Made by a program: the position numbers and the translations under genes. Positions 11,451 to 12,971 of a stretch of DNA of 16,518 bases are shown here, piece by piece (within the stretch, counting starts at the first letter, position 1; every line of letters starts with the position of its first letter). Below the pieces are notes generated by a model. The model was not told the origin of the DNA. It saw only the letters and a list, made by a program, of their open reading frames with translations, and made no database searches. This DNA comes from a virus (taxonomy: Duplodnaviria; Heunggongvirae; Uroviricota; Caudoviricetes), in IMG/VR virus record IMGVR_UViG_2526164609_000012; one strand, written 5' to 3'.

Positions 11451-11853
11451 ATCAGGAGGCAGAATGTCTGCTTTGTATGAACGCTCACAGCTGACGCAGG
11501 TGATGATTTCATCTGCCCTGGCGACTGCTGAAACTATGGATAAGGCGGAATATCTGCGCCTGGACTGCACCATCAAGGAAGTCCAGTTCACCGCCGGTCA
11601 GAAACAGGATATTGATGTGACCACGCTCTGCTCCACAGAGCAGGAGAACATCAACGGTCTGGGGGCGTCGTCTGAGATTTCCATGTCGGGTAATTTTTAT
11701 CTGAATCAGGCCCAGAACGCCCTGCGTGATGCCTATGACAATGACGCGTTGTATGCGTTTAAGGTGCTGTTTCCGTCCGGTAAGGGCTTTAAATTCCTGG
11801 TAATGCTGCCAACTTACTGATTTAGTGTATGATGGTGATTTTAAGGTGCTTGC

Positions 11854-12129
11854 GTGGCTTCCATTTCCATCAGATGTCCTTCCTGCTCCGCTACTGAAGG
11901 CGTGGTGCGTAACGGCAAAAGCACTGCCGGACATCAGCGCTATCTCTGCTCTCATTGCCGTAAAACATGGCAACTACAGTTCACTTACACCGCCTCTCAG
12001 CCCGGTACGCACCAGAAAATCATTGATATGGCCATGAATGGCGTCGGATGTCGCGCCAGTGCACGCATTATGGGCGTTGGCCTCAACACGGTTTTACGTC
12101 ACTTAAAAAACTCAGGCCGCAGTCGGTAA
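11854..12129 (+). CDS. insA: IS1 InsA
   Basis: 91-aa ORF, GTG start; [45 protein letters not shown]... matches IS1 InsA with its zinc-finger Cys motif. Confidence 0.9.
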
Positions 12130-12551
12130 CCTCGCGCATACAACCGGGCAGTGATGTGATTGTCTGCGCTGAAATGGACGAACAGTGGGGCTACGTCGGT
12201 GCTAAATCACGTCAGCGCTGGCTGTTTTACGCGTATGACAGGATACGGAGGACGGTTGTGGCGCACGTCTTCGGTGAACGCACTCTGGCCACACTGGAGC
12301 GTCTTCTGAGCCTGCTGTCGGCCTTTGAGGTCGTGGTATGGATGACGGATGGCTGGCCGCTGTATGAATCACGCCTGAAGGGAAAGCTGCACGTTATCAG
12401 CAAGCGTTACACTCAGCGCATTGAGCGACATAATCTGAATCTGAGACAACATCTGGCAAGGCTGGGACGGAAGTCACTGTCGTTCTCAAAATCGGTGGAG
12501 CTGCATGACAAGGTCATCGGGCATTATCTGAACATAAAACACTATCAGTAA
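12048..12551 (+). CDS. insB: IS1 insB reading frame (made as InsAB' by -1 frameshift)
   Basis: ORF in the -1 frame relative to insA. The IS1 slippery motif TTAAAAAAC is present at 12103-12111. C-terminal sequence ([70 protein letters not shown]) matches IS1 InsB. Coordinates are the ORF-track extent, not a real start. Confidence 0.8.
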
Positions 12552-12971
12552 GTTGGAGTCATTACCTAAATTCCTGGCGGAAGTGCGTCAGCACACCTGG
12601 TCATCCGGTACCAACGGTGTGGTGGCTGCAACGTTCTCACTGCGTCTGAAAGGCAAACCGGTGTCCTTTGTGGTACCGCTGGCGTTTGTGAAAAATCTGG
12701 ATAAGACACTTACCGTGAATACCGGTGCGCTGCTGACAATGTCAGTCAGTGCCAACGGGGGAATGCCGCCGTATAAATACGCCTGGAAGAAGGATGGTCA
12801 GCCGGTTGACGGGCAGACGACAGACACCTTCAGTAAGCCAGGTGCGCAGTCCGCTGATGCGGGGAAATATACCTGCGTGGTGACCGATTCGGCAGAGAAA
12901 GCACAGAGTGTGACGTCTGTTGAATGCACCGTGACAGTGAGCGCAGCTGCCGGATAAGGGGATGGGTCATC

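Follow-up and report, generated by a model that had tools for sequence, protein, structure and literature searches.

An IS1 Insertion With an Intact 9-bp Target-Site Duplication in the Major Tail Gene of a Prophage Shared by Shigella boydii and Shigella dysenteriae

Introduction

Shigella reference chromosomes carry 229–348 insertion sequence (IS) insertions, to which IS1 is the largest contributor, and IS1 and IS911 are among the five IS elements that have expanded in all Shigella species (PMC7373316). Prophage remnants disrupted by IS elements have been described from these genomes, and the locus reported here shows no substantive difference from them: a gene has been knocked out by an IS element and the lesion is shared within a lineage (cf. 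PMC7373316).

The element at this locus can be compared with IS1A of Escherichia coli K-12, and the interrupted gene with the tail genes of two kinds of phages. In phage lambda the tail-tube protein gpV (PDB 7T4F, 8IYK, and 8K36) combines an N-terminal tube domain with one C-terminal Ig-like domain in ca. 240 amino acids, an arrangement also seen in the protein studied here, and in both cases the G/T chaperone and tape-measure genes come next downstream of the gene. In the long-tailed Stx phages 2851 (EP2851_59), YYZ-2008, and Stx2a_WGPS6, the major tail subunit (labeled “encoded within prophage CP-933V”) is 98.5% identical over 717 nt to the gene reconstructed here, and these phages share its gene neighbors from the terminase through the tape measure. 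Their copies are uninterrupted, whereas the copy described here carries IS1 and has Leu19 instead of Pro19.

The DNA analyzed, hereafter called the window, is a stretch of 16,518 nucleotides (IMG/VR record IMGVR_UViG_2526164609_000012). The original prediction, made from its sequence, held that an IS1 element at 11799–12566 splits a major tail gene of the lambda gpV type, that a perfect 9-bp direct repeat flanks the element and allows the exact reconstruction of a 238-aa protein, and that the insertion has probably not been rearranged since. The insertion as such is already known, its fragments having been in public Shigella records for years.

The IS1 Element

The element (11799–12566, plus strand) is a full-length IS1 (768 bp) that reads in the direction of the tail gene. 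It starts with GGTAATGCTGCCAACTTACTGAT and its other end is an inverted copy of this start, with 20 of 23 positions complementary between IRL (11799–11821) and IRR (12544–12566), so that both the length and the imperfect terminal inverted repeats of ca. 23 bp beginning with GGTRATG are those of the IS1 family. The insA gene (11854–12129, plus strand) encodes a 91-aa protein with Zn-ribbon and HTH domains (PF03811, E = 1.1e-18; PF12759, E = 4.9e-30), which is identical to InsA of K-12 at 87 of 92 translated positions (the stop being counted). The insB frame (12048–12551, plus strand) is open throughout and encodes the DDE_Tnp_IS1 domain (PF03400, E = 1.3e-74, covering positions 1–131 of the 131 in the profile). 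At the AAAAAAC slippery site (12105–12111, plus strand) a −1 frameshift yields the 232-aa InsAB' transposase; in translations of the window IS1 this fusion is open for 232 aa, and a product of the same length with both the InsA and the DDE_Tnp_IS1 domain was called by the gene caller in one assembly (L004). The organization of insA and an overlapping insB' joined by a −1 frameshift at an A6C motif is thus that of the IS1 family, as is the presence of a target-site duplication, here TAAATTCCT.

Compared with IS1A of K-12, the window element has the same 768 bp and aligns without gaps, with 700 of 768 positions identical (91.1%). The two share the GGT(A/G)ATG... inverted repeats, the 91-aa insA, insB', the A6C site, the 232-aa InsAB', and the 9-bp duplication. 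Since it is 8.9% diverged from IS1A, the window element represents another IS1 isoform. Many E. coli genomes contain IS1 copies that match it at 100% identity, and it is, judging from its sequence, a common and apparently intact isoform, in which the sequence features needed for transposition are all in place. The initial identification of the element as IS1 is thereby borne out by the InsA Zn-ribbon/HTH and DDE_Tnp_IS1 domains and the 91% identity to IS1A. A sigma-70-like match is present at 11806–11833, at the IRL end and upstream of insA, which is where IS1 is reported to have its own promoter.

Target-Site Duplication and Reconstruction of the Gene

A 9-bp sequence, TAAATTCCT, directly abuts both ends of IS1 as a perfect direct repeat, at 11790–11798 on the left and 12567–12575 on the right. 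Nine base pairs is the usual length of target duplications in the IS1 family. The two copies are the only occurrences of this 9-mer in the window when both strands are scanned, and the chance that two given 9-mers match is 4^-9, or 3.8e-6. In each of the intact E. coli and phage alleles TAAATTCCT is single-copy, and these are therefore empty-site alleles. With an A+T content of 7/9 (78%) the target falls within the top 6% of 9-mers in a gene of 46% A+T; the argument from target preference is weak, however, because the wider 25-bp context lies at the 27th percentile of A+T and is unremarkable.

The repeat can be extended to TAAATTCCTGG, and a duplication of 10 or 11 bp was therefore considered. 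It was ruled out by the shared GG: IS1 canonically begins with these two bases and the native target also goes on with them, which sets the duplication at 9 bp.

Removal in silico of IS1 and one copy of the repeat results in an ORF of 717 nt (238 codons and a stop). Compared with the “major tail subunit” of E. coli ECO2947 (WP_001275432.1) it differs at 2 nt and one amino acid (L19 vs. P19). The identity of the excised gene to intact alleles is 99.7%, and rejoining the flanks neither adds nor removes a base. In one piece and with 100% coverage, it is found in 1,244 of 5,426 complete E. coli genomes, and it also matches 92 phage records, mostly of Stx-converting phages, among which phage 2851 (Stx2c), YYZ-2008, and Stx2a_WGPS6 are 98.5–98.6% identical to it. 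It is colinear with 30 homologs, down to 55% identity. On re-inspection the flanking 9-mers thus proved identical and the excision gave the 238-aa ORF that had been anticipated. The alignment with intact homologs and the empty-site alleles that the original prediction had asked for agree with it in public E. coli genomes and phage records: the homologs align as a single piece, and the empty site exists.

These data also bear on whether the two flanks were originally contiguous. IS1 could mark the end-point of an inversion or deletion produced by IS1–IS1 recombination, or the end of a composite transposon; IS-mediated rearrangement is frequent in Shigella genomes (PMC8072062), and nested IS elements are present 1.2 kb downstream of IS1. 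Recombination between two independent insertions would, however, leave non-matching 9-mers, and here they are identical; moreover, after excision the flanks yield a gene that matches intact alleles at 99.7% identity, without missing or extra bases. We regard this origin as improbable almost to the point of being negligible. On either side of IS1 the window is colinear with intact prophages and phage 2851, in line with the earlier claim that the insertion has not been rearranged further.

The Split Gene and Its Fragments

The 5' part of the major tail gene (11464–11798, plus strand) comprises codons 1–111 and the first two bases of the Leu112 codon, and an AGGAGG ribosome-binding site is located just upstream of the start at 11464. 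A tblastn search with the phage 2851 major tail protein placed its residues 1–112 at 11464–11799 (99.1% identity) and its residues 110–238 at 12568–12954 (99.2% identity). The 3' part (12576–12957, plus strand) runs from the last base of codon 112 to the stop and encodes what is left of the tube domain, with its invariant EVRQHTW motif, and an Ig-like domain of the I-set type (residues ~149–235).

The first G of IS1 completes the Leu112 codon, after which six IS-encoded residues (VMLPTY) and a stop follow. The truncated ORF (11464–11820, plus strand) therefore encodes 118 aa, i.e., 112 native residues plus VMLPTY, and terminates inside IRL, while about 126–127 codons at the 3' end are cut off from their start. 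In the alignment of the 30 homologs, the insertion point lies two residues ahead of the invariant E114-VRQHTW-120 block and, in an AlphaFold2 (AF2) model of an intact allele, within a predicted β-strand (residues 107–122) of the tube domain. The 118-aa fragment thus lacks half of this tube-domain core strand, the EVRQHTW motif, and the entire Ig domain.

Two further features were observed in and around the 5' part. Codon 19 (11518–11520) encodes Leu in the window and its Shigella relatives, whereas Pro19 is found in at least 90% of the 30 homologs; a Leu at this nearly invariant Pro site fits relaxed selection on a pseudogene. In addition, a terminator-like GC hairpin, CCCGCCGCGTGCGGG, with a T-run (11428–11450) is situated just ahead of the AGGAGG site, within the 63 bp that separate the tail-completion gene from the major tail gene. 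It may modulate high expression of the tube protein.

Identity of the Interrupted Protein

The reconstructed protein matches PHROG 158 (“major tail protein”) over residues 1–237 at an E-value of 2e-115. Its C-terminal part contains a single Ig-like domain (residues 149–227), for which the Pfam families Ig_3 (35.2 bits, cut-off 30), I-set (32.5 bits, cut-off 23.7), and also Ig_2 score above their cut-offs. Matches of the N-terminal part to Phage_TTP_11 (23.5 bits, cut-off 28.4) and Phage_tail_2 (23.5 bits, cut-off 23.8) remain below theirs, and no match was obtained in the reconstructed protein to Phage_TTP_12, the Pfam family of gpV itself. A sequence search against the PDB returned hits for the Ig domain only, i.e., to Ig domains of phage decoration, tail, and Hoc-like proteins, and gave nothing for the tube domain, so that a structure model and a fold search were needed. 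The intact allele P0002, which is 98% identical to the reconstructed protein, was modeled with AF2, resulting in a mean pLDDT of 80.4, with values >90 for the Ig domain and low values for the loop formed by residues 45–60. The best Foldseek matches of this model in the PDB are full-length lambda V structures (7T4F, 8IYK, and 8IYD; E = 1.5e-9 to 2.6e-8). Tube-only lambda V (7T2E and 8K36) and the YDC107 tail core are matched with TM scores of 0.52–0.55 (normalized to target length), which are moderate because residues 45–60 are of low confidence and the domain orientation differs. The fold search thus points to a tail-tube fold for the N-terminal domain of the P0002 model.

The position of the gene is that of a major tail gene, between the tail-completion gene gp17 and the G/T chaperone and tape-measure genes, and the same gene order is found in the window, E. 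coli ECO2947, phage 2851, and lambda. The similarity to lambda gpV does not extend to the sequence: the identity is 17% and the hhalign probability 39%, and where lambda V is assigned to Phage_TTP_12 (235 bits) with a Big_2 domain, the Ig-like domain of the window protein is of the I-set/Ig_3 type. Taken together, the sequence matches, the predicted structure, and the gene position identify the interrupted gene as that of a tail-tube protein with the fold and domain order of gpV but belonging to a different sequence family. The designation “lambda gpV-type” in the original prediction therefore stands as far as fold, domain order, and synteny are concerned, and is qualified by the I-set/Ig_3 class of the Ig domain and the lack of a Phage_TTP_12 match.

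Some phage records name the homolog of this protein “Hoc-like head decoration” or “fibritin protein,” and the PHROG and PDB sequence matches of residues ~120–237 are to Hoc-like and decoration proteins. The gene could accordingly be thought to encode an Ig-bearing head-decoration or fiber protein instead of a tail tube. These matches, however, are limited to the Ig domain, whereas the N-terminal 140 residues match tail-tube families; the model is closest in fold to full-length lambda V, tube-only lambda V, and the tail core of YDC107; and the gene occupies the place of the major tail gene. A Hoc-like decoration protein would combine Ig domains with a capsid-binding domain and have no tube domain, which is not what is seen here. 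We consider a decoration or fiber protein extremely unlikely and treat the gene as a tail-tube gene in what follows. In its intact form it is an example of a gpV-like tube protein in which the display domain is an I-set Ig domain rather than Big_2, and it has already been widely annotated.

Distribution of the Insertion

The same IS1 junctions are present in all ten closed Shigella chromosomes that were retrieved. The element measures 768 bp in each of them save one assembly with a 1-nt deletion, and the window is 99.86–99.99% identical to these chromosomes over 14.7 kb. One of the ten carriers, CP026832, is S. dysenteriae 14 ATCC 49346 (PMC10132075). Within the assembly collection, 95 indexed blocks contain the 118-aa product in exact form. 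Both fragments can be recognized in existing annotations: the exact N-terminal fragment in entries of S. dysenteriae, and the exact C-terminal fragment in two S. boydii strains, namely CDC 3083-94 (ACD06631.1) and Sb227 (ABB65841.1, “putative major tail subunit [Shigella boydii Sb227]”).

Given how highly IS1 is repeated in these genomes (PMC7373316), and how often repeats cause misassembly, it may be asked whether an IS1 copy was misplaced in the tail gene by repeat collapse or a misjoin. The empty site, however, has a single copy of the 9-mer, and its perfect duplication would not arise from a misjoin; moreover, identical junctions are present in 10 independently assembled closed chromosomes, and the product is indexed as widely as stated above. 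We attach next to no probability to an assembly artifact and regard the insertion as real.

A 1.8-kb query containing the IS element gave no match at ≥80% coverage among the 5,426 complete E. coli genomes. The exact junction was not found in metagenome contigs or in contigs representing one genome per GTDB species, but these scans carry no information, probably since Shigella is included in E. coli by GTDB and the genome representing that species does not have the insertion. We take the insertion to be one ancestral event that has been vertically inherited in an S. boydii/S. dysenteriae lineage, in keeping with the known expansion of IS elements in Shigella.

Other Lesions in the Prophage

The tail gene is not the only damaged gene in the window. 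The major capsid gene (5363–7299) is frameshifted near 5680–5722, leaving pieces of 132 and 512 aa, whereas the protein is intact at 645 aa in phage 2851 and E. coli ECO2947. The portal-region gene (7511–9933) is divided over three ORFs by an in-frame stop at 8009–8011 and a frameshift near 8860; the corresponding protein of phage 2851 is 859 aa long, and the homolog in E. coli ECO2947 has also been annotated as frameshifted. Both the capsid and the portal lesions are common to the related Shigella chromosomes. The tape-measure gene, which starts at 13699, is cut after 33 nt by the IS66-family element ISEc49 (13732–16167, minus strand). The related Shigella chromosomes carry a simple ISEc49 insertion of 2,766 bp with an 8-bp duplication, TCAAAATT, and their tape-measure gene continues beyond it.

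The window holds 2,436 bp of ISEc49, and from 16168 onward the left end of IS911 (TGAAGTGGCACAC...) is found inside ISEc49 tnpA. We considered that ISEc49 might end at 16167 and that the prophage is truncated there, but independent copies of ISEc49 continue identically beyond this position, and IS911 has therefore inserted inside ISEc49. This nesting was seen in none of the ten retrieved Shigella loci, and in the window it runs off the end. Looking up a 71-aa ORF across the ISEc49/IS911 junction by exact sequence gave no match.

On this evidence the IS1 insertion is one of at least four inactivating lesions, a setting that the original prediction had missed, and the prophage, as far as its gene sequences indicate, is dead. 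The phage would not be revived even if IS1 were excised precisely, and the prophage is to be annotated as a defective remnant.

The window has some additional features upstream of the tail genes. The 3' portion of the portal-region ORF contains a tandem repeat of 162 bp (54 aa) at 9097–9467, with 2.3 copies at 89% identity, and a faint match to QatB is the sole precomputed Pfam mark of this repeat region. The window has one unit fewer than ECO2947, and phage 2851 is also one unit off; the number of repeat copies therefore varies. Upstream of the terminase genes, positions 1–3637 form a lysis/accessory block with genes for a lysozyme, a lysis protein, a TonB_C-domain protein, a DUF3950 protein, and an HNH endonuclease adjoining terS. 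This block is ~96% identical to its best E. coli match, and its first 40 bases are without a match.

Origin and Consequences of the Insertion

A simple IS1 transposition, i.e., a staggered 9-bp cut followed by repair, that left a null and probably polar allele which has been stably inherited, is in our view almost certainly what happened at this locus, and nothing in the data contradicts it. The target would have been the tail-tube gene of a lambdoid prophage resembling phage 2851 (Pankowvirus-like, with a long non-contractile tail), and the event would have taken place in an ancestor of the S. boydii/S. dysenteriae lineage. Following established IS1 biology, the InsAB' transposase would have cut the locally AT-rich target TAAATTCCT, inside the Leu112 codon, with a stagger of 9 bp, after which the ends of IS1 would have been joined to the cut and gap repair would have duplicated the 9 bp. 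Translation of the interrupted gene would stop six codons into IRL and give the 118-aa fragment, so the tail gene is presumed to be null; IS1 probably also has a polar effect on the G/T chaperone genes that follow. The insertion would then have been passed on vertically without rearrangement, as one step of the IS-driven prophage decay that is typical of Shigella.

A more consequential role can be imagined. By knocking out tail assembly, the insertion may have helped to keep a useful prophage region locked in the genome from which a Shigella C1 (boydii/dysenteriae) lineage descends, and may have been retained for that reason, or the orphan fragments, i.e., the 118-aa N-terminal piece or the piece with the Ig domain, may still be produced and serve the host. 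We consider such a role very unlikely and prefer to see the insertion as an ordinary transposition event.

As a textbook IS1 insertion, the finding matters little beyond correct annotation: the 118-aa and 134-aa ORFs should be annotated as one major tail protein pseudogene disrupted by IS1. At a minimum, the junction would provide a clean PCR marker for the Shigella C1 (boydii/dysenteriae) clade. Because it is absent from the 5,426 E. coli genomes and common to S. boydii and S. dysenteriae genomes, it could be used as a lineage marker, and it could serve as one dated event in the expansion of IS1 in this Shigella clade.
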